In this document: one piece after another, positions 1 to 58,579 of the stretch
Layout of the letters: each line of letters begins with the position of its first letter
How positions within the stretch are numbered: position 1 is the first letter of the stretch
From: a virus
Length of the DNA: 64,000 nucleotides
Reading direction: 5' to 3' (one strand)
IMG/VR virus record: IMGVR_UViG_3300006919_000043
Coordinates: 1 to 64,000 of that record
The notes under the pieces: generated by a model
What the model saw: the letters and a program-made list of their open reading frames with translations, nothing else
What the model was told of the DNA's origin: nothing
Database searches by the model: none
Translations under genes and position numbers: made by a program

Positions 1-3000
1 TATCATGGACTCCCAGTTAGATTCGTGATTGAAGCCGTTGCTGGTAGTGGTAAAACAACCCTCCTTAGAATGCTCTTTAGCATCCTTGCCAATGCTCATC
101 ACTGTGGTCGGAAATACTCAATCACAGCCACCGCTTTCAATGGCACAATTGCCAAAGTAATTGTTGAGGCTATGGATGCTGTAAAACCCGATGGTGCCGA
201 CTGGACATCCGGTGGTGGCACTGGAACACTGAACAGTCATGGCAAGAAAACTGTGGTCAAATTCTTCGACCATCCTGTATCGCTGGTAACTGGTGTTGAC
301 CTGTGGTTGAAGTATGCCAAGATCGTTGTCTGTAATGCTTTAGCGAATGAGGATTTGCTTGAGGATTTCACAGCCAATGTCCTAATCAGCCCCAACGGAT
401 TCAAGCGAAGAATGTCCTCATGGTATGCTCTTTGCCGACTGGTTGCCAATGTCACAAAGAAGGCTCTCGGTGCTGGATTCTATGCACCGATTGACTCCAC
501 TGTTGATGCTGAAACATGGGAGAATTTCATGGGTCAAAATTTGGGTTCACTAAGACTGTCCGAACAGCCAATTGGTGCTGTATGGACAGCCTATCTTCAA
601 CAGGCTGTTGAGGACACTATCTCACTCCGAATGTATCACTTAGAGAACCCCAGTGAAGTCGCTGTGGTCAATGCTGATGCACTGCTATGGAAAGGTGACG
701 CACTCAATGGATTCTTCGATACTGCGGAGAACACAATTCAATCGGATCTCGTCAAGATGGGATTGAGGATTGAACCAGTATCAACCAATGCTGGCGACAG
801 CATTCAAGTCATACCATACCATGCTCGTAATTACCGCACTGGCAGGTTCGATGTCAAGCGTTTGGAGATTGTTTGGCCTAAAGGCACATGGGATGAAATG
901 AAGGCTGTTCAAAACGCTTGCTATGCCATGAAAGATGATGATATTTTCACCCCATACAGTGGATTCTCAAACTGTGGTAGCCGCAAGCCGGAAAACTACG
1001 ATAAGCGTTCACAGGCCAAATTCCAAACTGATGAATGGGTATTCTCAATCAAGGATTGTAAGCGTGATATTGATGCGTTCATTCAAGCGGCTACAACAGC
1101 AGGTTTTGACTACGCTGGTGCCTTCGATGGTTCGACACCAATTGCTGGCCAAGAAGAGGCGTTTATCGCTGAAATTAACCACATTGATTGTATCTATGCC
1201 CCAGCATATTTCGACATGCCAGCATGGAGAACATTTGACTTCATGTTCTGTGATGAAGTGCAAGATATGAGTCCACTACAACATGGCCTTCTTGAGCGAT
1301 TGGTGGCTAAGGATGGGAATGTAGTTATTGTCGGAGATAGAAGGCAAAGTTTGTATTTATTTTCGGGTGCTGACAGCCGTTCTATGGACTATGCAATTGA
1401 CACCTATGGATGCCAGTCATTCCCAATGACAGTGTGCTGGCGACAGTCCGATGTGCTTGCCAATGAAGTGGTATCAGCACTGGGATATGTTGACGGTGAA
1501 AAGACGATCTTCGCTGACCACAAATCAGCAAAAACACTGGTCAATTCATGGCGTGATGGATTCCATTCATATCAACACCACATCAGTGATTTGACACACA
1601 ATGTGGAGATTGGCGACATGGTTCTATGCCGCATATCAGCACCACTGGTTCACTATGCTATGGCTACTCTCAAGTCCGGTATTCCGGTTCGATTGGCTGG
1701 TGGTGGCGACCTTGAATCTCAAGTCAAATCCATGTGGTCAAGTAAGAACAAATTGAACATGGAGAACCGCCCAATTGGTGAGATATTCACAGCGATTGAG
1801 GATTACTTGACAGCACTGTTGACACGAATCACAAAGCGGGTAAATGGTGATGAAACACTGGCTCGCCAGCATGATGATTACAAGTCGGCACAGGATATGA
1901 CAACAGCAGTTACAGCATTGTTTGGTCGCTACGGAACCACAGTCTTGACCCATGAATTATCCAGCGATGGATTCCTTGCATGGCTTGAGGATCTCTTCGT
2001 TGACCCAACCGATACTGGCGAAGGATATGTCATGTTCTCCACTGTCCACCGTGCTAAGGGATTAGAGCGTGATACTGTCCACATTATCGTTGACCGCATG
2101 ACCAAAGACAAAGAAGGTAAAGAAACTGTATCACCATGTTTCATGCTTCCGTGGTCAATGAATAACAGTGCTGAAATCCAGCAAGAATTGAACGCTGTCT
2201 ATGTCTGTATCACACGGGCTATGAACACCCAGCGTTTTTACACAAACCACCCACTTGAATCGGGTTCATGTGGTATTGCTGACATCCTGTGGATGCTTGA
2301 CAATGAAGCACCTTCTAATGATGCCCCAGTGGCCTCAAATGTTGAAGTGGTCGAAGAGTCCACCAGTGATGAAGAAGAAGCCATAGAGGCCGTTAAAATG
2401 CCTCAATTCGCATTGTTTGAAGGTGGTGTCTGTGTGTCATTGACTGATGATGCGGATAAGGCCATGAAACATATCATCGAATGTGCTGGTGAGGACTATG
2501 ACATCAGTGAGTATGAAGCGGGAACCTATGTCAATGATAACCGTGTGTATGCTAACCCAAATCACCCATTGATTGACCACGCTGTGTATCTCACAGACCT
2601 CCCAATGGGCAACGATGTTGGAGAGTCCATCAATGAATATCTCAAGGACATGCACGACATCTATGACCACGCTGACCACATCGAATTATTTGGTGCTGGG
2701 ATCCCAACATTCTATTTCCACACAACAGACTTCGCACAGCCAGTGGTTGGTGATGAATTACCAGCACCTTTGGAAAACATGAAAGAAGCCTGTTGTGTCG
2801 CCAAATACAATTTCCCCAACAGAACATGCGATTGTGAAAAAGCACCAGCAAGAACCCGCAAGACAAGTGAGGAACGCTGGCATGATGTCATTGACGCATA
2901 CTTCGCAATCGAGATTAGTGAACAACCCAGCATCAATGCCGAGCGTGAAATTTGTGATGTAGCATCAGTGTGTTATCACAAAGCACTGGCCGAAGAAGCG

Positions 3001-17802: not shown

Positions 17803-17837
17803 CCCCTATTGGGTTGAACCCTGCGAGAGATGATACT

Positions 17838-24459: not shown

Positions 24460-24460
24460 G

Positions 24461-34587: not shown

Positions 34588-34928
34588 TATCTCACTTCCA
34601 TTACTACATCTATTCTTACTTCATTGGTAGCGTTCTTACTTATTGGTATGAAAGAGGATCTAAACGCTGGGTCGTCTAACGGTGTGCTACCGTGTATCAC
34701 GACTTCTTTGATTGATTGCGAAGATACTTGGTCGGTTCCAAATATTGCATTGACCGATATGGTTCTATCATCAACACGCTGAACCACAGGCGTTTTAGTC
34801 AATGCAACATTACCTACACCGTTGTTCCTTCTTGACGCTTCTCCACCTGTTGTTCCAAGACTCATGTTTTTCATAAGAGTCTGTAAATGGTCTGTTAATT
34901 TTGCTTTTATTGAATCTAATATTGGCAC
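34587..34928 (-). CDS. putative baseplate/tail protein
   Basis: 113 aa, SLGT.G..IKEV..F.PISK..EVRID. Confidence 0.55.
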   Translation of the reverse strand: MPILDSIKAKLTDHLQTLMKNMSLGTTGGEASRRNNGVGNVALTKTPVVQRVDDRTISVNAIFGTDQVSSQSIKEVVIHGSTPLDDPAFRSSFIPISKNATNEVRIDVVMEVR

Positions 34929-37900
34929 TATCTCACCTCGTAAAACACCGACTTAGAATGACCCAGTGGGTCTGCCCTGTTAGAACTTACCCTAAATTCT
35001 GCCCCATCGGGTATGGTTACTAAATTATTGGCTGTAAGCGTGAATTGAAGAACCGATACTGGGTCAACTGCTACCACCCCAACAAATTGCCCATCGGTCA
35101 AATACACACGGTCATTGGCTTTTATTCGTGTTCTCACATCAACACCATTGACCGCAATAAACGGTGTTGTATTAGCGTTTATACCACCGTTCTTTAGCAC
35201 ACCAGTAAGACCACCCTTGACACCAATAGCACCCAACTGACTGGTTTGCTCGGTGTTTCGCCACCTACCACCAATCAACAGCCTGTTGTTAAGGACAAGC
35301 CTTGTCAATATTCTTTGTGCTGATAGTATGCGAACAGTGTCCGACATACTTACTGATACTTGTTCACTAAATTCTCCCGTTGGTTTCTCACTGGTGGTTT
35401 GTAATGAAGATAATATATCCGCCAACAATCCTTCAATACCCTTTTCATACTGTCCTATGACCATAGATGTCATTCCGGTAGTGCTATCGTGCGTTGTTTC
35501 AAACACAGCGAACAGTCCTTTGATACCTTCATTTGTAAAGTCCACCGCTATGATTTCACCGGGTTCAATATGGCTGGCACTTACTAAACCATCAACCTTA
35601 ATGAGCGAAGCACCTTGCTCACTTCTATTCATAATTCTCTTAGCCATTTTCTTTGCTACGGAGTTAGATGTCAAACCGGCTACAATATTTGTTGAAGTCC
35701 TTGTTACGCCTTCTTCATTACCAGTGCCGCCCATTTGTTTTATTTTCTCTAAATCTTTTATCTCGGAACGCACCTTTTCATTCTCCGCCAACCTTTCACC
35801 TTCAACAATAACATGGTTAGCCATTTCTAACATAGCACTTATCTCTATGTTTTGAGGACCACTACTTGTTCCAAGTCGCTTCTCCTTTGCTACAAAGGCA
35901 TCGTTTGAATACAATATAATTCCGTTGCTATCCATTACCAACTGCTTGTCGTCAAACTGGGATAGCGTTCTCAAAACCTCCATCAAACCAACACCATTGA
36001 CATCTCGATCTGTAAATACACTGCTATGTTCAACGGTGGCATACAATGAAGGGTGTGCGTTCAAATACGCTTCTTGTGATTGTCCACCCATAGACCCACC
36101 CAAATCAGTAACAAGAGCATTTTCAACAACCTTTTGCGATAATACCGACTCATAAGGTAGTAAATCGGCACCGGCAATTGTTTGTTCAACATCTTTCAAT
36201 AACATCAAAGCGGCATCACTGGTTCTTACACCAACGCTCATGTAGTGTGCAAGCCTAACATATCCATCTAAAGAAATACCGGAGTCTGCCAGTGAGTTTT
36301 CTTTTAGGTTACGGAATTTCAATGTGTTGTCAACAGCACCCGATACTCTCCACCGGTTTCTTGCGGCATCGAGTAAATATGGGGAGAAGTGATTTGACGA
36401 AAGAGCCTTACCATCAACATATACAGTGGTTAAACCGCCTGTTCCCGGCTTGCGTATGTAAGACAATGAACCCTCTTTGTTTCCATCGTTTAGCACAAAA
36501 CGCTGGGGAGTTAGCATTGTGAAGTCCGAAGGTTCGTAATGACCCAAAGCACGATATGAGAGTGCTGTGGATATTGGTGTGTCATTAAGTGTGTTTGTCG
36601 CCTCCCACTTTTCAGCCTCATAACCAGCCATCGTGATAGCATTATCAACAAACGAAGGCAACACTACCAGCGAATGCCTTGATGGATATGTATTCGCTAT
36701 TGTGGATTTTACAGTAATTGATGCGTTCTTTCCAAATATTACCTCCCTACCGGACAAGTCGTTAATCGAAAGACAATCTCCGGTTGAATTATAAACAAAG
36801 AAATGGTTTTCATCTCGGCTGTTGTAAAATAATGACCCACTCAAACCAATAATAACCAGTGAACCCGAATATGGGAAGCCTGTTGCATCTTCAACAACTA
36901 ACATATTCCCAGCATCAACTTTGATGGTAGTCCTTGAGCCAAGCGTAGTCATTGTATGATCTGGTTGGGCACGCACAGCAATCTCATCGTTTGCCATTCT
37001 CAAATACGGTCGCATTCTCTTGAATTGATTTGTATAATTCAATCCCGTTTGCACTTCTGTTTGTGATACAATATCACCACCACCGGGGTGTGTGCTTTGA
37101 GAATATCTTGCATCAATCTTGGTGTCTAATTGTCCGTCTTGATTTCGTCTTGCCGCATCGGATTTGAAGTGTTGAAGCATGTTAGCACTGGGTATTAGAT
37201 GCCAAACTTCATTTCGATTGTTCCCATCCGGCCATGTCATGACTGGTGATCTATCTTCACTTGCTGTAATAGGTTCAATGTTACCATAGGTTTTGTTGCT
37301 GTTTAACTCAAACATGCCGTATCTCTTATCACGGGTGAATGGCTGGTGGGTGTTACCCGTTTGCGACAGTGTGCTAAACCCACCAAGCAACCATCCGTCT
37401 TGACCCAAATCAATGCCACCACCTTGTTGCCTTGACGACCAGCCAAAGACTTTCAATGGCCTTACCATACGCATGATGTAGTGTGCTTCTTTACGCACTG
37501 GTTGTAAAGTCGCTGACGACTGTGGTGCATTGAATCCAGTGTTGCTAAGGGCACCGCTTATATCTCCAACTGGCGTAATTGAGCGAACCCTGTTACTGTT
37601 TTCTTCATACTCTAACCATTCTCGCTTCAAAATATACACACCACCCCACGGTGGTAAATCACCACAGCCTCTTACAGCCCAATGGTCTTTTATGTATTCA
37701 GTAAAGTTAGATACTGTATCGCTCAATGTTGGACTACCTAGATCGGCTTTACCATTCAAAATCCATTCGGGATAAGATGTCCTTTGGTTAGTGCCCAATC
37801 CATCCGGACCTCCGTATGTTCGTTCAAAGGTCGAAGCATTGGTTCTTGATGAACCAGCGTTCTTTGACATAACAGTTTCAGTAACATAAGATGGAGTCAA

Positions 37901-40900
37901 TGGGAATTGCTGTCCTACCGCTAAATCACTGTGTAAAGAAACAGCCTTTGTGCTGGTAACAAGATATTCTTCATTCTTGTTGTCTTTCCTTTCGCTATTA
38001 GTTTCGACAACCATACCAAGTCTTGGCGATAAGTCGGATTGGACTTGTCTGTGATCGGCTATCTCGGATAATGGAATTGGCATTACGCCTCTTTCAGCAC
38101 TTGTTCCGCCCGTAGCGTCTTTCATGTTTAATGACCGACCCCAATTGTTGGCTGGATAGTGGATTAAATCTCCACTGCTTTGAGCATTGTCTGTTGGGTG
38201 TGCGTTGATATGCAGGTTGTTTCCTTTAGGTGTGGCTTGACTAATTGGATCGGAACCTTTATTCAACACTTTAGCATGTAAGAATTTAGCATTCGCACCT
38301 GTTAAATCCGTTTTGTTTGTTCTTTCAGCAGTGATTATACCTGCTGGCATCGCTTTGGGAGATACCATACCTAAACTTTCAATTTCTAATGTCCTACCCA
38401 TACCGACCTTTCTTTCCTTTGGAGTCCACTTATCGTTAGACAACCTTGTGTAGCCTTGTAAATCAAATGCTTCGTTAGTGTGTTCGCTCATTACTACACC
38501 AATAGGAACGGTTCTATGTATTCCATCATTCAGTGCTGATGTTTGCCAATCGCCACCAACAGGCAATTTGTTCATGGTGTCATGTATTCCTCCGTCAAAC
38601 CTACCCGAAGCCTGTATCTTTTGTTGATTGACGGCATCAACATTGGGCTTACCGGCAAGCATGTTCAAAGCATCGCTACCGCTTCGGAAACCAAAGGCTC
38701 TTACTGGCAACCTACGACTCCAATCAACAGCAACCATAGGATTTCTTACTGATGTTACCTCATTCCAAACATCATTGTTTTGACTATTATCCATGTCCAA
38801 AATAGAACGGAGAATGTTCTTTGTTGGGTTTAAGCCATCACCTATGCCCTCACCACGACTCTTTCTCCTTGTGTAACCGTAGTAAGAAAAGTGTGGTCGC
38901 AATTCAAGTGTTCCTTCGGCTTCATTAATACCATCATGCCCCATCAAAACTGCACCTGCGGCTCTTTGACCCAAAACACTGCCGTGCCCTGCGGCAAGGA
39001 GTCCGTTGTAGCCGTAATTCTGTAACCACTGGAACGCATATAGCCTCTCAAACGGCATAGAAACCTTTGGTGTTCCTTCTTGTTGGTTTCCACCCGCCTC
39101 AACATTTGCATTTCTTAACATCAAGCCCCGTAGTGGAGGACTGTTGATACCCTTCGGCATACCTGCACTTCTATACCGGAATGTCATGTAATGCTCACGG
39201 CTTGTGCCAAACAGTGCAGGGTGGCTATACTCCGCAAGCCATGTGCATAGGAAAGCATCGGGGGTAGCACCGGAGTTAGTGCCATCAGCCTTGACTAAAG
39301 CCAAGTCATTGTGTTCAGCATTTCTATCAAAATCACTTGACGATGCCAAGACTTGTCTTTTTGGTATTGGTGAAGCGGAGGCATTCACAAGATCTGGGTC
39401 ATGTGCTATAAGAGGCGGCACCGTTCCTAACTCCGTTCCTACACGGGGTTGTAACCAACCAGCAGGGTGTCCATAATATGTGTTAGTGCATCGGATTTGC
39501 AGACCGCCGCTTTCTTTCTTTTGGAAGTTTTGTAAAGAAGGCTGTGGGCGACCGCCCATCAATAAATACTGACTTACGATAAAGCCATTTAATGTAAATT
39601 CTTCACCTGCGTTGTGTCTATTTCCTACAACTCTTGATGTTGCTAAATCTAAAGCCACAGCCGCATTGTGAGAGGCATTACCATACCCACCAAAATTCTG
39701 TAATTCTTTTCCTATAACGCCTTGAACAAAGTGTTGTTGTTCTTTAGCACCTTCTGTGTTAGTGTGTTCTTGACCCGGTGCGAATAAAATGTCATAGTTA
39801 TCTTTTGGCGCACTACCGAAATACTGATGATGGCGAGGCAAAGTGTTATTTTTGATTTCACCATGTGGTAATCCATCAGCCGAGAAAGAACCTGCGTTAG
39901 AAGAATGACCCCTTACTTCTAATGTATCAAGATAATAAGATGTTGCACCTTGATTGCTATTTGCTGATTGGAAGCCCCAGTGTTTGTTCTCGGACTCGGC
40001 TTCAAACATCAAGGAATAAGCCGAACCACTTGACCGATGCAATTGCCTACGCATAGAAATTGGTGTTCCTCTTACCGTCATTGGCGTTACGAATGAATGC
40101 CCCTGCCTACCAAATCTAATTCGGTGGTGTGCTAATTTGTATGGTGCTAAACCTGCATTACCATCAAGCACTGAACCCCTTTCCACATGATCTGATAATC
40201 TATGAGATGCAAACAGTCGTGTGGTGCCGCTTGGTTTAGCACCGGGTGTATTGTTCAAGTCTAAACCAAATTTGCTGGTCAAAGTATCGTGAAGAATACG
40301 AACAGGATGGAAATGGAGAACCATATCGTTTGTGTCAAACTGTGAGGCTTCGTCTATTGTTGAATATGGACTTAGCCCAGCCTCAATTACCCCCGCTTTA
40401 TCGGGTCTTGGTATGCTCAAACCACCCATTCCCCAAGATAAGTGTCGCCATGCTTGCACCCTATCATGACCGGAATATACAATTATGTTACCCGGTATCT
40501 CATCTTGACTTGGCAAGCGCAATTGCAGGTTCGATTCTATACCACTGTTTGGAGATGAAGGCAGTGTAGTTTCTTGTTTGGTTGCAGGATCTATTCGTGA
40601 TTGTTTGTAATTGTAATCTCTAATGACTGTGCCAAAAGGTGAGCCACCTTCAAGAATTAACTGGGCACCAGTATCGTCAACTACTGGTAGTGAATCAAAG
40701 ACCATTTCTTCATTTGGTATCTGTAATCCTTTGATTTGTTCAGTGTTGACATCCCTTACAATTCTATATGGCCTATGCACATACCCAGCGTTAAGGTGCG
40801 GTTGTCCGTTTGTTGATGTTAATGTTGACAAAACGCCCGATTTCAAACTATATTGACGCAGTGCTTGATGTTTGTCTATATCACCCGTTGTCATGTTTGT

Positions 40901-43900
40901 AAATTCGGTGTGTTCATCAGCGTTTCCGTCACGCAACTCGGAGAATCGTGAATCTAAAACCCCACCATCTTCAAACGCAACTTTCCATTTACTCGTTTCT
41001 TTACCTTTGAAAAGCATCTCACCGTGTCGAAGCGTGGTGGCGACATTTTGGGTTAATGTTATTGTCGGTGTCGCACGGAACAAAAGTGTGTCTGTTGGTA
41101 TATCTTCAACAAGACTGGAAAACAGTAATCGTGAAAATGTAACACCGTTGACTACTCTTTCATCTAACACACCACTAATGACACCATACAATTTACCTTG
41201 AGAATCAACTAATTGACCCAAATTCCCTACGGTTCGGTTGACATAATCCGTCAATTCCATGTCGCCGCCAAAGGTTTGATTGTCAATACTTTTGATACCT
41301 ACACTGGATTTCACAACCAAATGTCTGTTAGTCGTAGCGTGTTCAGTGGTATAGGATTGTAATGTGCTTGTAGCATTTTCATAATCCATCGTTGGCTTAT
41401 ACAATGACATCCCTTTAGTCAAACTTGTTTGGTTAGTGCCGGGTGTTAGGTTCTCAAGGTTGGCGGGATCGCCAAATGTAAGTGACTGTGGCGTAAGTGA
41501 TTCTCCGTATATTGGTTCACCGGGTGTTAATCTTAAATTAACATTTTCAACACCACTCATTCTGTAAGTATGGGTGCTGGTGCTTAGGTTGCTTGCTAAT
41601 GATATTGTCCATTGACTGGTTTTTCTTGTTCTAAGACCAAACTGATAAGGCACTATTGTCAAACCAATTTGGTTTTGTTCAGCAAGGGTTATTCGTGTTT
41701 TTGTTACGCTTGATACCGTGCCCACTTCCGTTCCAGTATTTGTTTCTAAGATAGCACCCGGAACAACCCCTATTTGCCTTAAATCTTGCATAATTGTGTT
41801 AGGCTCAAATTCCAACTGTGTGGTTGACAACTGCGGAACAACAGTGCCCGCACCTAAACCCATAGAAGCCTGTGACATAAAAGCGTTAAGAGGCCGAGAA
41901 TAAGATGTTTGTTGAATTTCCGATATTGTTCCAATGTATGCCGGTGTGTATAACACTTGACCATTAGCCAAACCTTGATTGGTTGCTGAATGTAGCACTA
42001 TTGTTGTAGTGTTGACGCTTTTCACAATTCCTAACAATATGTTGGTTTGACCTGCGACTTTGTATAGAGGTTCGCCTACCTTGATACGGTCGCCATACTG
42101 ACCTGCTGATGTTGGATCAGTGGTTCCGAAACCAGTGTTCACTGTAATTGTGTCCGAGCCGTTAAATGAATTGACTGTAACGCCTGTGCTATACAATGTG
42201 TGTGTTGAATATATCCTTTCACCTTCATGAAACAACAAGTTAGGATCAGTGTTCGCCACTGCTATGGTGTTTATGTCTTGCTGACTACTTGGCTCTATCG
42301 CATTACCGGATTCTGCATAAATTAGACAACCATTATTCGATATACCCGGTGCGTATCGCTTTACAATATTTGTTATAGGTATTGTTCCAATTAAAGCATC
42401 ATTATCCTTTCTAACTTCATCTCCTTGATTGAAAACAGCATTCGCTTCACCACCTTCTTGGTCGGCCACTATTGTGCTTAAATCCCCAACTGAATGGCTA
42501 TTACCGCTTGGGTTTGGGTTGAATGTTCTGCCTTGTGTTCGGTAATGATGAGTGCCGACATTCATACTACTGTCTATGTTTTTCGGTCCTACTGCTCTTA
42601 AACCCGTTGGTGTAATTTCGCTAATAGATGATATTGTTCCTATTTCAACAGCATCGGAATTGTAAATTTTGTCGCCATCTTCAAAATGGGCTTTGATGGT
42701 GGTTGAAGGTGTTAAGACTGGAATACTTGTGCCGGTTGTTATGTTGGCATTGGCAGAAACCACACAGTTTGTGCTGAACGGTCCGGCTGTGTCCAATTCG
42801 GTGCCGTGTTCATTGTCTGTAATATACAAGGCATCGTTATTGATAACTGCGTTATCTGCTTGATTGGTTCCTCGCCATTGATACGGATCGATTTCGCTTG
42901 AACCCATGATATTGGGTCCGTCGAATGGCATATCGGGTGGTGGCATGTCGGGCATAGTGCATGAGTTAAGACCCTCTATGGAGAATCGAGAATATCCATG
43001 CCCTACGCTGTGAGTTTGAGGCTGTGCCCCCCTTGAATCAGCATTTACATTTGGCAACCCCATGTTGCCTCCATCCATTGGCTTTGCTGTCAAATGCCAT
43101 ACTGGTAAATCAACACCAAGACCTTGAACAATCGGACCTCCGTTTGCTGTTCCCCAATATCCACCACCTGTTGGAGTATCTTGTTCCCATGAAACGACAA
43201 CAGTGTGTTGTTCACTGGTTTCATTATCAATCAAGAATACTGGTTGTGAAGATCCTATATTGATGTGTTCGACATTTCCTACTACTCCGGTAGTCGTTTC
43301 TATTTTCGTAATGTTGAATGAAATGGTTGTTTCGCTGTCTATTTCATATCCATCGTATGTTAGCGTATAGACACTAACTGGTTGACCACCATCATCTTGA
43401 ATTGGTGAATTAGGATTACCTCTAATCGTGCCACGCTTAGGAATGTCGGTTGGCATATTAAGATTGTAACCTGTAAATGTTCGCCTGTTGGGGGTGCCTA
43501 TTTGTAGCATACGCAATAAGCCGCCTCTAACCGGTTGAGCGTTGCTCAAATCCACTGCAATCGGCTCATAGAACCTAATTTCTCCACCTTGTATTTCCAT
43601 TATCTTTCCTATGTATTCATTGTTTAGTGTATATAGGCTGGTGTTTGGTGACAAATAACCACCAATACCGTAATTGAAAGTTAATGTTGTTGTTGAACCA
43701 GCAACATGGTTTCCGCTTACCTGTAATACACCTTGACCAACATCCAAACCAGCACCCCATACCTTAATCGGTGCATTTCCAATACCGCTACCATACGCAC
43801 CATATTGCTTATTGCCGGACATTTTTGTATATCTTGCTCTAAGATACCTACTGACAGAATGCTGGCCTATTTGCCTGTGCCTACTTGAATTGATATGTGA

Positions 43901-44281
43901 TGCGATAAGTCGTGCCGCTTCTTCTGTTCCTAAATTAAATGTTTTTGCTGGTATGGATGAACCGTTTGCTCTTGCTGTTGCGTTAGCCTCCGCCGCCCTT
44001 TTCAAATCAATCAACTGAAAGTTTGTTCCATTCCTGTTGTCCTCTCCATTAGTTTGACCAGCAGTGCTGTCATTTGCTAAAGGTGTTCTAATCAAGAAAT
44101 TAATACCCAACTGATTGGTTCCGTTCTTAGCGAATGTCATGTCGGTTGGATCTTCATACGCAGTATCGGGATAAGTGAAATGGAGGCTGAAATAACCACT
44201 GGCCGTAACACCATTGTCTGTTCCTACTGCTGTCAATTCAGCCGGAAACTCCCGCTTCATGAAAGACAGTCTTTCGCCCAT
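34928..44281 (-). CDS. giant tail-tip/hub protein (about 3100 aa) with repeated beta modules
   Basis: Start ATG 44281 after GGTGA; C-terminal hub-like region (ANHVIVEG, IEPGEIIAVDF); internal repeats. Confidence 0.7.
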   Translation of the reverse strand: MGERLSFMKREFPAELTAVGTDNGVTASGYFSLHFTYPDTAYEDPTDMTFAKNGTNQLGINFLIRTPLANDSTAGQTNGEDNRNGTNFQLIDLKRAAEANATARANGSSIPAKTFNLGTEEAARLIASHINSSRHRQIGQHSVSRYLRARYTKMSGNKQYGAYGSGIGNAPIKVWGAGLDVGQGVLQVSGNHVAGSTTTLTFNYGIGGYLSPNTSLYTLNNEYIGKIMEIQGGEIRFYEPIAVDLSNAQPVRGGLLRMLQIGTPNRRTFTGYNLNMPTDIPKRGTIRGNPNSPIQDDGGQPVSVYTLTYDGYEIDSETTISFNITKIETTTGVVGNVEHINIGSSQPVFLIDNETSEQHTVVVSWEQDTPTGGGYWGTANGGPIVQGLGVDLPVWHLTAKPMDGGNMGLPNVNADSRGAQPQTHSVGHGYSRFSIEGLNSCTMPDMPPPDMPFDGPNIMGSSEIDPYQWRGTNQADNAVINNDALYITDNEHGTELDTAGPFSTNCVVSANANITTGTSIPVLTPSTTIKAHFEDGDKIYNSDAVEIGTISSISEITPTGLRAVGPKNIDSSMNVGTHHYRTQGRTFNPNPSGNSHSVGDLSTIVADQEGGEANAVFNQGDEVRKDNDALIGTIPITNIVKRYAPGISNNGCLIYAESGNAIEPSSQQDINTIAVANTDPNLLFHEGERIYSTHTLYSTGVTVNSFNGSDTITVNTGFGTTDPTSAGQYGDRIKVGEPLYKVAGQTNILLGIVKSVNTTTIVLHSATNQGLANGQVLYTPAYIGTISEIQQTSYSRPLNAFMSQASMGLGAGTVVPQLSTTQLEFEPNTIMQDLRQIGVVPGAILETNTGTEVGTVSSVTKTRITLAEQNQIGLTIVPYQFGLRTRKTSQWTISLASNLSTSTHTYRMSGVENVNLRLTPGEPIYGESLTPQSLTFGDPANLENLTPGTNQTSLTKGMSLYKPTMDYENATSTLQSYTTEHATTNRHLVVKSSVGIKSIDNQTFGGDMELTDYVNRTVGNLGQLVDSQGKLYGVISGVLDERVVNGVTFSRLLFSSLVEDIPTDTLLFRATPTITLTQNVATTLRHGEMLFKGKETSKWKVAFEDGGVLDSRFSELRDGNADEHTEFTNMTTGDIDKHQALRQYSLKSGVLSTLTSTNGQPHLNAGYVHRPYRIVRDVNTEQIKGLQIPNEEMVFDSLPVVDDTGAQLILEGGSPFGTVIRDYNYKQSRIDPATKQETTLPSSPNSGIESNLQLRLPSQDEIPGNIIVYSGHDRVQAWRHLSWGMGGLSIPRPDKAGVIEAGLSPYSTIDEASQFDTNDMVLHFHPVRILHDTLTSKFGLDLNNTPGAKPSGTTRLFASHRLSDHVERGSVLDGNAGLAPYKLAHHRIRFGRQGHSFVTPMTVRGTPISMRRQLHRSSGSAYSLMFEAESENKHWGFQSANSNQGATSYYLDTLEVRGHSSNAGSFSADGLPHGEIKNNTLPRHHQYFGSAPKDNYDILFAPGQEHTNTEGAKEQQHFVQGVIGKELQNFGGYGNASHNAAVALDLATSRVVGNRHNAGEEFTLNGFIVSQYLLMGGRPQPSLQNFQKKESGGLQIRCTNTYYGHPAGWLQPRVGTELGTVPPLIAHDPDLVNASASPIPKRQVLASSSDFDRNAEHNDLALVKADGTNSGATPDAFLCTWLAEYSHPALFGTSREHYMTFRYRSAGMPKGINSPPLRGLMLRNANVEAGGNQQEGTPKVSMPFERLYAFQWLQNYGYNGLLAAGHGSVLGQRAAGAVLMGHDGINEAEGTLELRPHFSYYGYTRRKSRGEGIGDGLNPTKNILRSILDMDNSQNNDVWNEVTSVRNPMVAVDWSRRLPVRAFGFRSGSDALNMLAGKPNVDAVNQQKIQASGRFDGGIHDTMNKLPVGGDWQTSALNDGIHRTVPIGVVMSEHTNEAFDLQGYTRLSNDKWTPKERKVGMGRTLEIESLGMVSPKAMPAGIITAERTNKTDLTGANAKFLHAKVLNKGSDPISQATPKGNNLHINAHPTDNAQSSGDLIHYPANNWGRSLNMKDATGGTSAERGVMPIPLSEIADHRQVQSDLSPRLGMVVETNSERKDNKNEEYLVTSTKAVSLHSDLAVGQQFPLTPSYVTETVMSKNAGSSRTNASTFERTYGGPDGLGTNQRTSYPEWILNGKADLGSPTLSDTVSNFTEYIKDHWAVRGCGDLPPWGGVYILKREWLEYEENSNRVRSITPVGDISGALSNTGFNAPQSSATLQPVRKEAHYIMRMVRPLKVFGWSSRQQGGGIDLGQDGWLLGGFSTLSQTGNTHQPFTRDKRYGMFELNSNKTYGNIEPITASEDRSPVMTWPDGNNRNEVWHLIPSANMLQHFKSDAARRNQDGQLDTKIDARYSQSTHPGGGDIVSQTEVQTGLNYTNQFKRMRPYLRMANDEIAVRAQPDHTMTTLGSRTTIKVDAGNMLVVEDATGFPYSGSLVIIGLSGSLFYNSRDENHFFVYNSTGDCLSINDLSGREVIFGKNASITVKSTIANTYPSRHSLVVLPSFVDNAITMAGYEAEKWEATNTLNDTPISTALSYRALGHYEPSDFTMLTPQRFVLNDGNKEGSLSYIRKPGTGGLTTVYVDGKALSSNHFSPYLLDAARNRWRVSGAVDNTLKFRNLKENSLADSGISLDGYVRLAHYMSVGVRTSDAALMLLKDVEQTIAGADLLPYESVLSQKVVENALVTDLGGSMGGQSQEAYLNAHPSLYATVEHSSVFTDRDVNGVGLMEVLRTLSQFDDKQLVMDSNGIILYSNDAFVAKEKRLGTSSGPQNIEISAMLEMANHVIVEGERLAENEKVRSEIKDLEKIKQMGGTGNEEGVTRTSTNIVAGLTSNSVAKKMAKRIMNRSEQGASLIKVDGLVSASHIEPGEIIAVDFTNEGIKGLFAVFETTHDSTTGMTSMVIGQYEKGIEGLLADILSSLQTTSEKPTGEFSEQVSVSMSDTVRILSAQRILTRLVLNNRLLIGGRWRNTEQTSQLGAIGVKGGLTGVLKNGGINANTTPFIAVNGVDVRTRIKANDRVYLTDGQFVGVVAVDPVSVLQFTLTANNLVTIPDGAEFRVSSNRADPLGHSKSVFYEVR

Positions 44282-44285
44282 GTTA

Positions 44286-47200
44286 TCACCAAGTGTTCCT
44301 CGCATTATAGAGATTGGTGACTTGTTGTGATGTCATACCGTAATTCCACATAGCCATCTCACTAAGCACACCTTTCCAATATCTTGGGTCGTCATTACCA
44401 TTACCTGTGGTTCCTTTATAGTAACCCGGAAATGATGTCGGGTGCAAAAGATCTATACCAACACAGTGCATGTATGAGGCTTTACCAAAAAGACCACTTG
44501 CTAACGCATTACCGACACCAATAGTTTGTGGCAAGTGCCTTCCACTATCCAACCCTAACGGTTCCGATAAAGTCCACGGTGCATCTGCTGGAATTGCGCC
44601 GTTAACATAAAGGATAGCCTGTGCTGATGTCGGACTTCTTGTGATAACTATGTGTTGATATTCGTCTTTTGGTCTATCAGTTATTTCGGCTGATAGCCTA
44701 ACAGTGGTGCCGTTAGTATGCGGTGTCATTACTATAACACGATAAGAAAATACCCCACTTGAAGAACCCTGCTTTGAAAGTATTGACACACCTAACCCTT
44801 TGTAATCGGTTGCCCCTGTGTTAATAAAACCGTGATACACCGGACCGTTACCCCATGCTTGATTAGACCAATTGCCAGTGTTACCCGGCTTGAAAAAGAA
44901 AGAAAAGGTATATTGTGATTCCGTATTGTCAACCCATTCTCTTTGCATGGGCACTAAACTTGGCACTTGAACCGTGTTAGAATTATTATTCGTTACCAAG
45001 TCTTTGTCGTGCAAAGCAATTGCGAATGCTGATGTGTGACCGTTGGATAACACCCCTTTACAACTCGGATCTGCTGTTGGTCCGGCCACTAATGCAACAC
45101 TGTCGCTTCGATTGACATACACTTTAGAGCCATGAATTGTGTCTATGGCTAACTTCTTTCTTGCCTGTGGCTGTCCTAATTCCTCTTGGCTCATTGGCAA
45201 ATACCAAACACATGTATTCCTTGCATCTAATTTATTGGCGGCATCGGGCAAAGCCCCAGTGACAACTGTGTTCACTTGATGGTGCATCCCACGATATGTG
45301 TTGGAATTTACAGTATCTTCATTCTTCAACTCACTAAAGTCAAGCACTGCGGCTGATGTTTGCACACCTTCTAAGTTTTGGAAACCACTGTGCCCAGCCG
45401 GACCTTTAGAATAGTGGTGTGTATAGAAGTCGCTGTAATCATTATCGGTTCCGTCGCTAATGTCGAATGTTACGCCAGTGTGCCCACCACCAAAGAATAG
45501 AATACCATTAGCATCAACAAGTGGGTTCAATAGTTTGATAGGCACTTCTTTCAATGCCCCTGTGTTATCGTAAAACAAATCTTTCCACTTCTTGCCTAAT
45601 GTTTTATCCAAAGGCTGTGTATTGAACAAACCAATACAAGAACCAACTCCGGAAACTTTGCTGGGTGGGTTGTTTTGAACACCTGTAACTATACCATCAA
45701 ACTCTCCTAAATATTCATTATCAACTAAAATCAACGCTTTACGCTCTCTTGTAATTTTTCCTTTGATTCTATACAATATATCCAGTGCTTTGCGCTCAAC
45801 CATGAGAGTCGGTTGCGATTCGGGGTCATACAACGGCATTGGATTGCCATTTTCAAATTTCGGCAAAGCCACTGTATTGAAACTAAACTCTTGTCCTACA
45901 CCTTCATAGGTGCGAAGATTGTTGTCGCTATCACTTACTGCCCCATGCACACCGCCTTGAAATGTGGTTATTGGTATATGCGTTTCTCCATCCATTCCTA
46001 ACGGTAATGGCGCAGGGAATGAACCTGCTTGATAAGAACGGCTGTTGGTAGCCAATAGTCCACCATGCCCTACTGCTTGTATTGGCCTATATGGGTATGG
46101 GCTGTTGTTATTCAACCACACTGCAAAATTTCGCCCCGATGCACCCGGCACGGTGCTATGAATTACAATTGACAATCCTTCTTCACCATCCCTGCTTTCA
46201 ACACCTTGTCCTAAGAATGCTCTCAAATACCCCATGTGAGAGCCAGTGTCAACACTTGCTGGTGCGTCATGATTACCTTTTGCGTTAGTGAACAATGGCG
46301 GTGGGTCGAATGCACTACCGCCCTGTAAATTCTTTGCGTTAGGATGTCCGGCTTGGTTTATGCGCCTTATCAATTCATTAACAGCATCTTCAAACTTGCT
46401 TACCGTTCCAGCACTTGCTACATCACCTAATTTAATCTTCATTGGCCTAACCCAATCAAGACTAATGCCGTCGCTTCTTTTACCTTTTAATGACAAATAA
46501 CCACTGCGGCATTCAACGGGCGGAACCAATGGTTTGGTATCTTGCGAATATAGATAATGTCCGGGGTCGAAGGCGAAACCCTCCATATTCGGACCATCAT
46601 ATATTAATACGGTATTTGGGTCATTGGGATCGAGATGTATTCCGCTTCTATCCACCACACCGTTTGTTGTTGTTTTACCAAGTGCAAATGTTTTTTCTAA
46701 CGGTCCAATAAAAGACTGTGCTACGGTGCTTTCCGTGCTGTTCGCACCTACTGGACCAGCGTTTAGTGCGCTAAAAGTGCCTTCAAGCAAAGTGTTAGTA
46801 TTAGGAATAACATAATTAAGTGGCGGAAAACCTACTCCAATACCACCTGCGTTAGTCAACCAACTACCCATAACAACAGGCAATCCAGCCGTAATAATAC
46901 TCTTCAACCCAGCATAATTTAAGTTATCATCATCAAAGTCTTGGTATGCGTTAAAGTATAATCTGCTTTCGGTGCCGACTGTTAGTGCTTGATGTATGTG
47001 TAATCGTATGCCTTTTTCACTGATGATGCCCTCCCCTACGGTTACTACAAAACCCGTATTGTCAAATGGTTCTGTTGCTAAGGGGGCAGTGACATAATTC
47101 CCACTGGTAGTGCCGTCAAATCCACCTTCTCCATGCAAATTGCCTTGTATGAAAGGTAAGATTGAGTCAACTAAAAGGTATGTGCCAAAGTGCGAAAAGT

Positions 47201-49613
47201 CGGCATTGTTGTTACCTCCACCAAGCACAACTTGTGTGTCGCTGGCCGCACCACTGTATGATGCGGCACGGGTGAAAGTGGATGATGATTCACGCATGGC
47301 TCTTATCCAAAAACCACTTACAACTTCATTGATGGTTAATGCTTGGACTTTATTTTTAGCCCCCCAATCAATAGCGTTTCGGCTTTCATAGTCTTTCATC
47401 TGTGGTCTATTCATAGCCGTCATTGTGGCATCCAACACCAATTCCATAGATCTGTTAGCGGGTAATGGTGAACGCTTTTTAGTGCTGGTCGCTAAACGCT
47501 GTTCAACATCGAAAAACATTGATGGGAATAGTGGCAACTCAACTAAAGCACGGGTGGATGCGTAATAGGTTGATGTTTGCTTATCATTTCGCACCGATGG
47601 GTTATCCGCACCAATCACCTTATCTTTCCATACAGGCAAGAAAGAATGCTCGGTTCTATCGGGCTTGATGTCAATACCACCTTGCCCTAACCCAGCCATC
47701 GTTAGGCTCACTGACGGTGAACCCAAATCACCTATCTCCTTGATAGCATACCCATCAGTCAATCCAAAATCTCTTTCGGCTATTCTATCTGTTATGTCCA
47801 TCAATTGTGATTTACCACGAATTAATACACCACCAGTGTTAGACTCACTGTTTGGTGCTATTTCCTCAACACGCCCTTTCATTGTAAGCAACTTGACTTG
47901 ACATACATGTGGACTATCGCTATTTTGTGTAGTGGAAAGCGATTTGAGAATACCACTTCGTTTGCGGTTCTTGGGGTGTATTAATAATAAATTCAAATCA
48001 TTATCTTTAACATTGTCAATGATGTCAAATTGTTCAAAGGCTACTGCTCTTACGGATGTTCGGGTTCTATTTATGGGTTGAACAGGGTGATTGCCGTCAA
48101 CATTACCCGTTGCGGCTGGCACTTTTTCTTTCTTAGGTGAAAGAACGGACAGTGTATGATATGACGATTCACTTTTCTTTACCGGACTAATGGTATTTGC
48201 TATCGCTTTCGGTCGCCCGTATGCACTAAACTTAGGATTCAGTTTTACATCTCTTTGGTTTTGAAAGAAAAAACTGTCGTAAATAATTGTGTGAGGGCAA
48301 TTAGATATGTCAATGAATGGAGAAAGTGTTTGGTCGCCTGTTGGGTTGACCCTCATAACATGGTCTTGAGGGGGCTTGTTGAAATTTGCGGAGGGTAACG
48401 ATATAAGCCCACCGGGTGCTTCGATGCGAAGAATATCGGGCAACGGTATTGTTGATTCAGGATCGGTTGGGTCGCCCCCGTCTGCGATAAAACGGGCATC
48501 TGTGAACGGTCGTTTCAACCAATCAGCAAGTGTTCTATTGCGGATTGCTTGTGTTGAAGTATCTGTAAAAACAGTGTTTGAGTCCGGCACTGTCTTTTCG
48601 ACAATCAACCAAGATGGTCTTTTCTTGTAAAAACGCTGTGAAGAATTGATACTTACGATGTCATTATGAGCATTTTGAAACTGTGTCCATATTGTTGGGT
48701 CAACAATTGTTAGCCAATCCGGTGCATCTTTGTATGCGGCCATCACTTCACCGGTCAAATCTATGGCATTGTAGTGAACCTCAACCACTTTTGGCAAACC
48801 GCCTCCAAATTGACATTCATCGGGAATAAATATTTTGGCGATTCTTGACTTCTTTTCGGGTGTCAAGTGTCGTATGTATTCTTGGTTTGTGGGTTTTGTT
48901 GGGTCGTTTGTGTCAAACAACGCAGTGTGTTCTGTGTCAAGACCCTTTAACAAAAACGGCCTTATGTCCTCAACAGCGATTGCCAAAATCGAATCAGCAG
49001 TGCTTGAAGGATAACTACCGGTTTGGTCGGTAAGTCCTTGACCACCCTGCACAATTATTGATGAAGCATTCTGTCCATTGAGGCTTTCATAACTTGATAC
49101 AATACTTTCAGTAATCACATCTAAAGCCTCTCCTTGATATACTGTTTCAGTAACATTGATTTTATCGTTTAATGAAACAACACTACCAATAGAAGCATCT
49201 TCATAGGTTGACTCAAATCTATCAGCAATACCTTGAACCGTGCGTGTAACCACTTCTTTGTTAGGCTGGGGTAATTGTGCTAAGAAAAAGTGCCCTTCGA
49301 CCTTATTGTATGTGGTGAAACCACATTGTCCGGCAAAATCGCTAACTGGTTCGGGTAATGTCGTAGCCATACTAAAAGCCGAACCTTCACCAGCCCGCCT
49401 TTGTTGGTTGCCCCCATCAACTCCACCCCAATTCAAACCTTGACCCGGTCGTGGTTCTTCGGGTCTTTCGGGTTCTTCGGGTGGTCTTTCGGGTTCTTCG
49501 GGTGGCCTTTCCGGTTCTTCTTCTCTCGGCCTTTCCGGTTCTTCTTCGGGCGGTCTTTCCGGTTCTTCTTCTCTTGGCCTTTCCGGATCTTCTTCATGCT
49601 CATGCTCGGACAT
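44286..49613 (-). CDS. giant tail-associated protein with N-terminal E/P/R repeat and C-terminal LamG/ConA-like domain
   Basis: Start ATG 49613 (TGATG overlap); YTFSFFFKP..YQHIVIT..ILYVNG..GVLSEMAMWN..VTNLY. Confidence 0.7.
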   Translation of the reverse strand: MSEHEHEEDPERPREEEPERPPEEEPERPREEEPERPPEEPERPPEEPERPEEPRPGQGLNWGGVDGGNQQRRAGEGSAFSMATTLPEPVSDFAGQCGFTTYNKVEGHFFLAQLPQPNKEVVTRTVQGIADRFESTYEDASIGSVVSLNDKINVTETVYQGEALDVITESIVSSYESLNGQNASSIIVQGGQGLTDQTGSYPSSTADSILAIAVEDIRPFLLKGLDTEHTALFDTNDPTKPTNQEYIRHLTPEKKSRIAKIFIPDECQFGGGLPKVVEVHYNAIDLTGEVMAAYKDAPDWLTIVDPTIWTQFQNAHNDIVSINSSQRFYKKRPSWLIVEKTVPDSNTVFTDTSTQAIRNRTLADWLKRPFTDARFIADGGDPTDPESTIPLPDILRIEAPGGLISLPSANFNKPPQDHVMRVNPTGDQTLSPFIDISNCPHTIIYDSFFFQNQRDVKLNPKFSAYGRPKAIANTISPVKKSESSYHTLSVLSPKKEKVPAATGNVDGNHPVQPINRTRTSVRAVAFEQFDIIDNVKDNDLNLLLIHPKNRKRSGILKSLSTTQNSDSPHVCQVKLLTMKGRVEEIAPNSESNTGGVLIRGKSQLMDITDRIAERDFGLTDGYAIKEIGDLGSPSVSLTMAGLGQGGIDIKPDRTEHSFLPVWKDKVIGADNPSVRNDKQTSTYYASTRALVELPLFPSMFFDVEQRLATSTKKRSPLPANRSMELVLDATMTAMNRPQMKDYESRNAIDWGAKNKVQALTINEVVSGFWIRAMRESSSTFTRAASYSGAASDTQVVLGGGNNNADFSHFGTYLLVDSILPFIQGNLHGEGGFDGTTSGNYVTAPLATEPFDNTGFVVTVGEGIISEKGIRLHIHQALTVGTESRLYFNAYQDFDDDNLNYAGLKSIITAGLPVVMGSWLTNAGGIGVGFPPLNYVIPNTNTLLEGTFSALNAGPVGANSTESTVAQSFIGPLEKTFALGKTTTNGVVDRSGIHLDPNDPNTVLIYDGPNMEGFAFDPGHYLYSQDTKPLVPPVECRSGYLSLKGKRSDGISLDWVRPMKIKLGDVASAGTVSKFEDAVNELIRRINQAGHPNAKNLQGGSAFDPPPLFTNAKGNHDAPASVDTGSHMGYLRAFLGQGVESRDGEEGLSIVIHSTVPGASGRNFAVWLNNNSPYPYRPIQAVGHGGLLATNSRSYQAGSFPAPLPLGMDGETHIPITTFQGGVHGAVSDSDNNLRTYEGVGQEFSFNTVALPKFENGNPMPLYDPESQPTLMVERKALDILYRIKGKITRERKALILVDNEYLGEFDGIVTGVQNNPPSKVSGVGSCIGLFNTQPLDKTLGKKWKDLFYDNTGALKEVPIKLLNPLVDANGILFFGGGHTGVTFDISDGTDNDYSDFYTHHYSKGPAGHSGFQNLEGVQTSAAVLDFSELKNEDTVNSNTYRGMHHQVNTVVTGALPDAANKLDARNTCVWYLPMSQEELGQPQARKKLAIDTIHGSKVYVNRSDSVALVAGPTADPSCKGVLSNGHTSAFAIALHDKDLVTNNNSNTVQVPSLVPMQREWVDNTESQYTFSFFFKPGNTGNWSNQAWGNGPVYHGFINTGATDYKGLGVSILSKQGSSSGVFSYRVIVMTPHTNGTTVRLSAEITDRPKDEYQHIVITRSPTSAQAILYVNGAIPADAPWTLSEPLGLDSGRHLPQTIGVGNALASGLFGKASYMHCVGIDLLHPTSFPGYYKGTTGNGNDDPRYWKGVLSEMAMWNYGMTSQQVTNLYNARNTW
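49445..49600 (-). repeat. coding tandem repeat (EEPERP)n
   Basis: About 7 imperfect 18-24-nt units, e.g. ggttcttcgggtggtctttc. Confidence 0.85.
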
Positions 49614-58569: not shown

Positions 58570-58579
58570 ATTTATCATC

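Follow-up and report, generated by a model that had tools for sequence, protein, structure and literature searches.

The 3125-aa open reading frame described here (34928..44305, minus strand) lies in the window, the whole 64,000-nucleotide stretch of DNA that was analysed, which belongs to a virus record consisting of a 77.7-kb contig. It stands at the end of a tail-gene block whose same-strand order runs from Phage_tube_2 (56299-58578) and TMP_2 (53657-55231, a weak match) to genes for proteins of 419, 925, 1779 and 3125 aa, placing it downstream of the tube and tape-measure genes. Its designation as a tail protein rests on this gene order and on weak leads. The best Pfam match is YQBQ-like (E 0.061, below the Pfam cut-off), and the Protein Atlas points to Phage-tail_3, YQBQ and Prophage_tail at 0.77-0.80, all scores there being ≤0.81 and serving as leads only. 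The PHROG search returned no family and the PDB sequence search no match for the protein; across Pfam, PHROGs, PDB sequences and a phage genome collection, no family was obtained for either the protein or its modules.

The source is an uncultured marine virus, probably an archaeal one. It encodes a PolB, the nearest relatives of which belong to haloarchaeal tailed viruses (23-24% identity), together with an RFC-like clamp loader; no Pfam match to MCM, primase or PCNA was obtained among the scanned ORFs. Magrovirus-like genomes have been defined by a head-tail module combined with an archaeal-type replication set of PolB, clamp, clamp loader, primase and MCM (PMC5434244).

The 3125-aa protein comprises a conserved scaffold of ~2200 aa and accessory barrels. 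Most of the barrels lie within residues 525-1101, where members of a ~60-aa module family are arranged in the bracket order M1[M2[M3[M4, M5]], M6], and two further copies, A and B, lie outside this interval. The features are as follows, with HMM columns referring to a 60-column module profile.

34928..44305, minus strand: host ORF, 3125 aa, last in the tail-gene block
43520..43696, minus strand: module A, contiguous copy (residues 204-262; HMM 1-59, 68 bits)
42608..42727, minus strand: M1 opening half (residues 527-566; HMM 1-39, 42 bits)
42359..42475, minus strand: M2 opening half (residues 611-649; HMM 11-32)
42203..42280, minus strand: M3 first piece, with GERIYS at its end (residues 676-701; HMM 4-24)
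41942..42196, minus strand: M4, contiguous barrel in the first hairpin of M3 (residues 704-788; HMM 3-59, 55 bits)
41903..41941, minus strand: M3 second piece, AYIGTISEI (residues 789-801; HMM 28-38)
41630..41824, minus strand: M5, contiguous barrel in the beta3/beta4 loop of M3 (residues 828-892; HMM 6-59, 49 bits)
41498..41617, minus strand: putative M3 closing half, WTISLAS ... LTPGEPIYG (residues 897-936; HMM 44-59 at 920-935)
41387..41491, minus strand: M2 closing half, SLTF ... KGMSLYK (residues 939-973; HMM match in homologues P0003 and P0004)
41072..41329, minus strand: M6, a further domain carried by the M1 loop (residues 993-1078; conserved in short and long forms)
41003..41071, minus strand: M1 closing half, TITLT ... 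HGEMLFKG (residues 1079-1101; HMM 38-59, 22 bits)
34982..35158, minus strand: module B, contiguous C-terminal copy (residues 3050-3108; HMM 4-60, 53 bits)

A sequence-only reading of this DNA had described recursively nested repeat modules here, and all of the motifs that it quoted were found in their places, the interval corresponding to residues 525-1101 of the minus-strand ORF. The module signal is weak at the pairwise level, as neither self-BLAST of the 3125-aa protein (E 10) nor phmmer with single modules (E 0.1-0.3 only) gave a usable internal repeat. For the 60-column HMM the four contiguous copies were combined with the spliced M1, and M2 and M3 were left out. Over the whole protein it matches contiguous modules at 204-262, 729-788, 837-891 and 3050-3108, and fragments at 527-565 (hmm 1-39), 621-642 (11-32), 681-701 (4-24), 790-800 (28-38), 920-935 (44-59) and 1079-1101 (38-59). 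These fragments are absent elsewhere in the 3125 aa, and their profile coordinates are complementary and follow a last-in-first-out order. When the inter-module sequence was shuffled (n = 100), no weak match arose in 93 shuffles, one in 7 and at least two in none, compared with four collinear weak matches in the unshuffled protein. Complementary fragments at a level reached by 0/100 shuffles support the proposal that domains were inserted into loops of the same domain type.

Split-module matches were also obtained in six homologues, and the layout of the window was matched in the four long forms; the M2 closing half was matched in P0003 (39-56) and P0004 (34-58), the M3 second piece in P0002, P0003 and P0004, and the M3 closing half in P0002 (HMM 39-48). 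An HMM derived from the contiguous modules of other viruses alone re-finds the same parse bar three parts, giving no match to the M3 second strand, the M2 closing half or the M3 closing half. Family membership of the contiguous copies is apparent from hhalign, which gives 95% for module A against both B and M1, and 95-97% for M4 and M5. As pairings swapped between opening and closing halves score equally in sequence comparison, the pairing of the M1 halves rests on the AF2 model described below and that of the M2 halves on orthology with short forms. Neither direct nor tandem repeats were detected at the DNA level, so the module copies are old.

M1, the outermost barrel, is split in the loop that follows strand three, with its halves 513 residues apart; the strands of the opening half carry t.i.v, GDxIY and IGTISSI. 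Across its splice M1 aligns at hhalign 95-97% with contiguous modules (A, B, M4/M5 and the independent profile), except for 86% with B in the group-I profile. The true closing half scores 43/55/41 in hhalign, against decoy maxima of 35/43/39, and 0/45 decoys reach it. AF2 models of moderate confidence were obtained for residues 500-1110 (mean pLDDT 66) and 600-985 (mean pLDDT 62.5) and were read through aligned ranges. For the first of these, 22 of the 50 matches listed by VIA span model positions ~10..605 yet align just 72-88 residues (rmsd 2.6-4.3, maximum Z 8.2), indicating that the two M1 ends are modeled as parts of one barrel. The M1 halves are thus predicted to form one compact barrel: AF2 joins the ends of M1 over a long range, with ~75-80 residues superposed on solved barrels, instead of laying out contiguous sequential domains, the outcome that would have spoken against nesting. 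However long the cargo, in every relative the M1 closing half adjoins the conserved scaffold that lies downstream.

At the next level, spliced M2 (611-649 + 939-973) aligns with independent contiguous modules at 90.5% (columns 2-73 of 76, across the splice) and with modules A and B at 38-42%. Deleting residues 650-936 from the long-form profile restores collinearity with the natural short forms (score 333, 275/288 columns, through the junction), which marks M3[M4, M5] as a 287-aa insert in M2. The M2 closing half also lines up with that of the contiguous modules in short forms. These alignments support M2 as a putative split barrel holding M3. For M3, joining the N-terminal pieces (676-701 + 789-801) raises the score against module A from 19 to 39.5 (95.6%, with module A only), and a first split of the candidate barrel, by M4, is clear from the profiles. 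The four-piece M3 splice aligns over columns 2-65 of 67 with module A and scores 27.3 against M1, for which the shuffle maximum is 21.9. The closing half contributes 7 score units against M1, a gain reached by 0/25 column shuffles, and gives no gain above controls in hhalign against module A; this putative half is weakly supported and is the least secure part of the parse. Of the three opening and three closing halves originally proposed, those of M1 are therefore upheld by AF2 and those of M2 by the short forms, and the splitting of M3 by M4 also stands, leaving the M3 closing half as the weak member.

The inner levels are not visible in either AF2 model owing to low pLDDT, with values <50 over most of M2 and in places along M3; in the 600-985 model M2 again falls below 50 and no clear M3 barrel is present. 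Long modeled strands (697-714, 784-805 and 891-906) connect parent and children. M4 is modeled with a pLDDT of ~80, and the M5 barrel extends over ~802-896 in the model, with VIA matches to M5 covering model range 200..297 at Z up to 6.4. The GQLVDSQGKLYGVISGV module (M6, 993-1078) had been counted in the same family, an assignment that was not confirmed: hhalign probabilities against the modules of the window stay <7% with three boundary choices and peak at 63% with the independent profile. M6 is found in all module-bearing relatives and is modeled with pLDDT 75-83 for about 1030-1090. The branched appendage that had been suggested follows from the connectivity as parsed here, in which M3 would carry M4 and M5 in two loops and the M1 loop would carry the M2 tree and M6.

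Relatives were compared using a homologue set of 39 IMG/VR contigs, in which the site is empty, singly filled or multiply filled. M1 is present in 28/39 and is split at hmm 38/39 in 28/28, with a cargo of 171-627 aa that consists of one contiguous module, of two or three side by side, or of the nested form; two contigs, L019 and L036, represent divergent cargo loci. The other 11/39 are compact relatives without A, M1 and its cargo, or B, lacking residues 172-261, 475-1175 and 3030-3125. The barrels, all of which these eleven do without, are therefore hypervariable accessories on a conserved scaffold. In a tree of the scaffold the architectures follow clades, requiring 6 changes where shuffled labels need 21.8, and the nested form occupies a 9-row clade plus L034, with the root assumed; L034 groups with single-guest forms (support 92). 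Very few columns are invariant in the module region, compared with many in the flanks. Located at one scaffold site, the array is a fast-evolving accessory outgrowth whose presence and content both vary between relatives.

The predicted module fold is similar to that of EF-Tu domain 2 and to the barrels that decorate siphophage tube, Dit and hub proteins. In VIA, M4 matches the tube decoration domain of 9n71 at Z 7.9 and lambda gpJ 490-561 at Z 6.5, as well as many EF-Tu, aEF1A, eRF3 and Hbs1 chains at Z 5.5-6.3 (rmsd about 3.0 Å, 70 aligned), and the structural neighbours of M1 include eIF5B, Hbs1l and eRF3. VIA rates Z values of 5-8 as middling, so the EF-Tu domain 2 match is read as fold likeness only. 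The module profile gave no match in Pfam at E 10 and, against the PDB, only aIF5B 514-538 at E 0.061. With whole models, Foldseek found nothing in the PDB at E ≤0.001 and only low-TM multi-domain matches in BFVD; the Si3 structure 8emb appeared only at E 0.017-0.02, and no SBHM chain was among the top VIA matches.

Taken together, we consider it likely, with a probability of about 0.75, that residues ~525-1101 form a tree of small beta-barrels made by domain-in-domain insertion and carried as an accessory on a tail-protein scaffold. On this model, the loop after the third strand of M1 would have been opened by the 513 residues holding M2 and M6, M2 would be broken at the equivalent loop with M3 inside it, and M3 would be broken twice, its first hairpin receiving the intact barrel M4 and the same beta3/beta4 loop as in M1 and M2 the intact barrel M5. 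The chain would then run outward through the opening halves and come back through the closing ones, taken in the opposite order, two strands tying each child domain to its parent.

The most serious competitor, which we regard as unlikely, keeps two levels only and treats the M3 pieces (676-701, 789-801 and 897-936) as a three-stranded beta-ribbon stalk bearing M4 and M5 next to each other inside the M2 loop. The very long strands that AF2 draws at 697-714, 784-805 and 891-906 would suit such a stalk, as would the small contribution of the M3 closing half against module A in hhalign; moreover, no VIA match clearly isolates an M3 barrel, the nearest being weak ones over 47..336 (Z 4.2) and 151..443 (Z 5.8). 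A stalk does not, however, account for M3 pieces that match complementary profile segments (4-24, 28-38 and 44-59) in the right order, for the 95.6% match of the joined N-terminal pieces to module A, or for a four-piece splice that covers columns 2-65/67 of module A and exceeds the shuffle maximum against M1 (27.3 compared with 21.9). In addition, GERIY comes after a first strand of the t.i.v type (TIAV), an order shared by all full modules.

An array of plain tandem domains, in which a closing strand doubles as the next opening strand and the halves are degenerate repeats, is suggested by the likeness of the closing motif G..lY to the opening motif GD.lY, and a shifted register can be drawn locally where GQVLY, the last strand of M4, directly precedes AYIGTISEI. 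This arrangement is highly improbable: it is largely refuted by half matches that carry complementary rather than full profile coordinates, by the single barrel that AF2 makes from the two ends, by the constant position of the M1 closing half beside the conserved scaffold in relatives with cargo of any length, and by the collinearity with short forms gained on removing 650-936, and tandem repeats were not found, at the DNA level or otherwise. Chance recurrence of motifs in a composition rich in beta-strands, with no homology, could explain the empty self-BLAST at E 10 and the phmmer values of 0.1-0.3, but is refuted by the shuffle and decoy controls; profile-profile matches of 95-97%, the recovery of the same sites by the HMM from other viruses and the agreement of the fold models also count against it, leaving its likelihood negligible.

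Same-fold nesting has already been published for Si3 of RNA polymerase. In Si3 of the cyanobacterial beta' subunit (RpoC2), SBHM-2 to -5 are discontinuous (PMC10895346) and the architecture is recursive over six levels (PMC13114784); a 2026 survey gives the cyanobacterial polymerase as an example of six-level nesting (PMC13114784). In both systems a small beta-rich domain has been inserted into further copies of itself, several domains are assembled from distant parts of the chain, and the accretion on a conserved core varies between lineages. They differ in the best structural neighbours, which here are EF-Tu-domain-2-like barrels, with Si3 appearing only weakly, in the depth of nesting (3 here, 6 there) and in the host, a viral tail-module protein as opposed to a polymerase. 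The tree here is also branched, and closely related viruses hold one to three un-nested modules in the same loop, or none.

Among siphophage proteins, decoration and insertion barrels lie on the tail surface (PMC11445458). Similar small barrels in VIA are those of 9n71 (JBD30 gp44 88-175; Z 7.9-8.2, rmsd 2.3 and 3.7 Å, 70-76 aligned), the 727-residue chain o of 8rk3 (Z 7.8), lambda gpJ 490-561 (Z 6.1-6.5) and T5 pb9 (Z 5.5); no sequence relation to these decoration barrels was detected. Such barrels, and the OB domains in JBD30 Dit gp49, are likewise insertions into another domain, but each sits once in a domain of unlike fold, either a beta-sandwich or a hub domain, whereas here the domain that receives the insertion is itself a copy of the barrel. 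The 'evolved' Dit and Tal proteins of siphophages of lactic acid bacteria contain inserted carbohydrate-binding modules thought to add host adhesion (PMC8540738). They share with the present protein the placement of accessory modules in loops or extensions of tail-tip proteins and their variability between related phages; their modules, however, are beta-sandwiches of the CBM type, single or serial, and not self-nested.

The likeness to siphophage tube, Dit and hub decoration barrels makes it probable that the cluster extends outward at the tail tip, with surface adhesion as its probable function; it could attach to structures on the host surface or serve as a spacer. The two ends of an inserted barrel are near one another, which may be why the beta3/beta4 loop tolerates insertion, and this tolerance could allow new cassettes to dock there repeatedly. 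A further step, rather doubtful at present, is that this loop acts as a reusable socket at which these probably archaeal marine viruses swap or duplicate whole barrel cassettes, thereby retargeting the tail tip to different host surfaces. The cassettes in question would be a single module, a row of two or three, a nested tree or a GSGY-rich domain. If true, this would be a plug-in host-range system that works by domain insertion and not by swapping of fibre tips.

Self-nested domains are rare, and the family of the 3125-aa protein adds a natural graded series in one protein, from no barrel, through a split barrel with a single guest and two or three guests abreast, to a three-level branched nest. 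Because this series occurs at one site, stepwise domain insertion and the tolerance of loops become testable on real sequences. Within the tail tip of these uncultured marine viruses, a group that has no host system, the module array is the region that varies most and probably lies exposed, and is a place to seek the determinants of host recognition.

The interval 41002-42733 lies in a giant gene that is the last of a block of same-strand genes:

34928-44305, minus strand: giant ORF of 3125 codons, holding the interval as residues 525-1101
Same-strand block: 759-aa protein with a Phage_tube_2 domain
Same-strand block: 524-aa protein with a weak tape-measure match
Same-strand block: 419-, 925- and 1779-aa proteins, the 925- and 1779-aa proteins with LamG-type domains

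In the scaffold of the giant protein, Pfam offers one lead to a domain of baseplate type, a weak YQBQ-like (PF24032) match at residues 2881-2948 (window 35600-35800; E 0.061, below the Pfam cut-off). Such weak leads, together with gene order, point to a tail protein. The 1779-aa ORF (44286-49625), upstream of the giant ORF, overlaps its start by 20 bases (44286-44305), and the next ORF upstream shows a like overlap (49613-49625); overlapping starts along the tail block suggest translational coupling. In the 1779-aa and 925-aa neighbours (44286-52390), Laminin_G_3/concanavalin-like domains were found (E 9e-08 and 1.6e-04), and no barrel copy was detected in either by the barrel HMM.

Internal repeats in the giant protein are invisible to pairwise methods (self-BLAST, phmmer), so the barrel repeats are old and divergent; no DNA-level repeats were found. 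Module profiles were cut from an alignment of eight full-length or partial homologues. The contiguous ~60-aa modules A (204-262), B (3050-3108), M4 and M5, and the split module M1 after splicing (527-566 joined to 1079-1102), align with one another at hhalign probabilities of 89-97%, with all pairs that include spliced M1 at 95-97% and their alignments crossing the splice. A and B are the intact modules that the sequence-only reading had placed near 43530-43700 and 34985-35165. The M1 opening half alone scores 32-38, rising to 43, 55 and 41 with its true closing half; joined instead to 45 decoy segments, it reaches maxima of 35, 43 and 39, all below the true closing half.

A 60-column HMM built from these five modules, with the split modules M2 and M3 left out, was run over the whole 3125 aa. 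It matches the four contiguous copies, M1 in two parts (hmm 1-39 and hmm 38-59), the M2 opening half (621-642, hmm 11-32) and three M3 pieces (681-701, hmm 4-24; 790-800, hmm 28-38; 920-935, hmm 44-59), and has no other matches anywhere in the protein; when the inter-module segments were shuffled 100 times, at least two weak matches arose in 0 runs. Three halves do open in turn, as had been proposed. The layout recurs in the homologous proteins P0002, P0003, P0004 and P0006, and the M2 closing half is detected in P0003 and P0004. An HMM made exclusively from the contiguous modules of other viruses recovers A, M1, the M2 and M3 opening pieces, M4, M5 and B in the window protein, and misses the M3 second strand and the M2 and M3 closing halves. 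The claim that further full modules are inserted holds for M5 and is not supported for M6, the second cargo domain in the M1 loop (993-1078), for which hhalign found no tie to the family. The module profile matched no Pfam family and, against PDB sequences, aIF5B alone (E 0.061).

The second level of nesting is revealed by comparison with shorter relatives. Deleting residues 650-936 from the alignment of the long forms makes its profile match that of the short forms from end to end (275/288 columns, score 333), with no break at the junction in the beta3/beta4 loop of M2; with those residues left in, the two profiles align only in part. M3, with M4 and M5, is therefore a 287-aa unit inside M2. 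Independent contiguous modules also match spliced M2, in an alignment that bridges the splice (hhalign, 90.5%). At the third level, M4 was removed by joining 676-701 to 789-801, and the score with module A rose from 19 to 39.5 (95.6%), in agreement with the earlier view that this half is itself split by a full module. The M3 closing half gains 7 score units against M1, a value reached by 0/25 column shuffles, and its gain against module A is not above controls. From these alignments, it appears less secure than the first split of M3; of the three closing halves that had been proposed, those of M1 and M2 are upheld and that of M3 is the weaker.

The AlphaFold2 model of residues 500-1110 was built from a 10-row alignment (mean pLDDT 66), and barrels were read from the aligned ranges of an exhaustive structural comparison. 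One group of matches (among them 9n71_B, Z 8.2; 8rk3_o, Z 7.8; 8vjh_A, Z 6.5; eIF5B, eRF3 and Hbs1 barrels, Z about 6) spans model residues ~10 to 605 with just 72-88 residues aligned (rmsd 2.6-4.3 Å), which means that the two construct ends, separated by 513 residues, form one barrel, M1. A second group (EF-Tu domain 2, aEF1A, lambda gpJ 490-561, the F1-ATPase N-terminal barrel and a tail-tube decoration domain; Z 5.5-7.9) covers model residues 205-288, which are M4 as a contiguous barrel. The model of 600-985 (mean pLDDT 62.5) again contains M4, and M5 as a barrel over ~802-896, with M2 below pLDDT 50 and no clear M3 barrel; the expected pairing of distant halves is seen in the models for M1, and M2 and M3 lie in their low-confidence parts. 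In both models, long strands (697-714, 784-805 and 891-906) run from parent into children. The predicted fold resembles the small barrel of EF-Tu domain 2, as in tail decoration domains, a likeness claimed at the level of fold rather than homology because the Z values lie in the tool's middling range.

An IMG/VR scan returned 39 homologous loci, and each homologue was scanned with the module HMM and BLAST. Nesting varies among these related viruses, from an empty site through one, two and three guests to the nested form:

Array architectures among the 39 loci (cargo, sequence inside split M1)
Compact form: 11/39; ORF segments of ~1160-2720 aa, complete ones ~2200-2700; without A, M1 and its cargo, and B
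One guest: 6/39; a single contiguous guest in split M1; cargo 171-200 aa in loci with a detected closing half
Two guests side by side: 7/39; cargo ~342-351 aa
Three guests: 3/39; cargo ~411-416 aa
Nested form, the window's pattern: 10/39; cargo 516-627 aa
Other, divergent variants: 2/39 (L019, L036)

The array is accessory and variable. The compact form has ~80 aa in place of query 475-1175, the one-guest form also has M6 where the region is alignable (four rows), and the M1 split position is constant (profile 38/39). In a tree of the scaffold built on residues 1180-2140, which lie outside the array, proteins with modules and proteins without them form separate groups with full support; architectures cluster on this tree (6 changes vs 21.8 for shuffled labels), with the nested form in one 9-row clade plus L034. 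Invariant columns are very few in the array region and many in its flanks. The compact loci (L008, L010, L015-L017, L020, L021, L033, L035, L038 and L039) lack the three barrel sites (query 172-261, 475-1175 and 3030-3125), retain the scaffold (33-59% identical within individual aligned segments), and form a separate clade with full support. A glycine-rich, GSGY-rich domain of a different kind (motifs SGGSGYS, GTGSGLTV and GTGYSHGDSITISGG) fills, in L034 (L034:9950-19831, protein residues ~885-955) and P0010 (~760-830), the barrel loops that carry barrel modules in the window protein. An 85%-identical relative, L002:1999-11383 (also P0003, 1963 aa), matches the whole 3125-aa query by tblastn; its longest open frame stops after ~1972 codons, where the gene is interrupted, either by a real split or by an assembly error.

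The best account of the array is M1[ M2[ M3[ M4 | M5 ] ] M6 ], in which brackets denote a domain inside a domain. The module family itself, the splits in M1 and M2, the first split in M3, M4 and M5 as intact copies, and the accessory and variable character of the array are shown by the data. Three of the four insertion events would have occurred at one loop, after the IGxIxS strand, and the fourth at the preceding hairpin. M3 probably closes as a barrel, and the array may branch in three dimensions. By analogy with the barrels that decorate tube, Dit and hub proteins (PMC11445458) and with the binding modules inserted in evolved Dit and Tal proteins (PMC8540738), it could be exposed on the tail tip and serve in adhesion or as a spacer.

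The assembly is one 77.7-kb contig, and its other arm encodes replication proteins:

17814-18797: RFC-like clamp loader
22132-24459: family B DNA polymerase (PolB)
24398-25408: PD-(D/E)XK nuclease

The closest database relatives of the polymerase are from haloarchaeal tailed viruses (23-24% identity), and several ORFs near the replication genes have no Pfam match. These features are compatible with a magrovirus-like archaeal tailed virus (PMC5434244).

Recursive insertion within one fold has a published precedent in cyanobacterial RNA polymerase, whose Si3 region is reported to have discontinuous SBHM-2 to -5 (PMC10895346) and, at six levels, serves to illustrate complex nesting in a survey of 48,551 insertion events (PMC13114784). 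The architecture of the array works as in Si3, although it is three levels deep rather than six and sits in a viral tail-module protein, and the likeness is claimed for architecture alone. What the locus newly contributes is a series of natural forms that runs from the empty site up to the branched nest, in a setting that is probably that of an archaeal virus.
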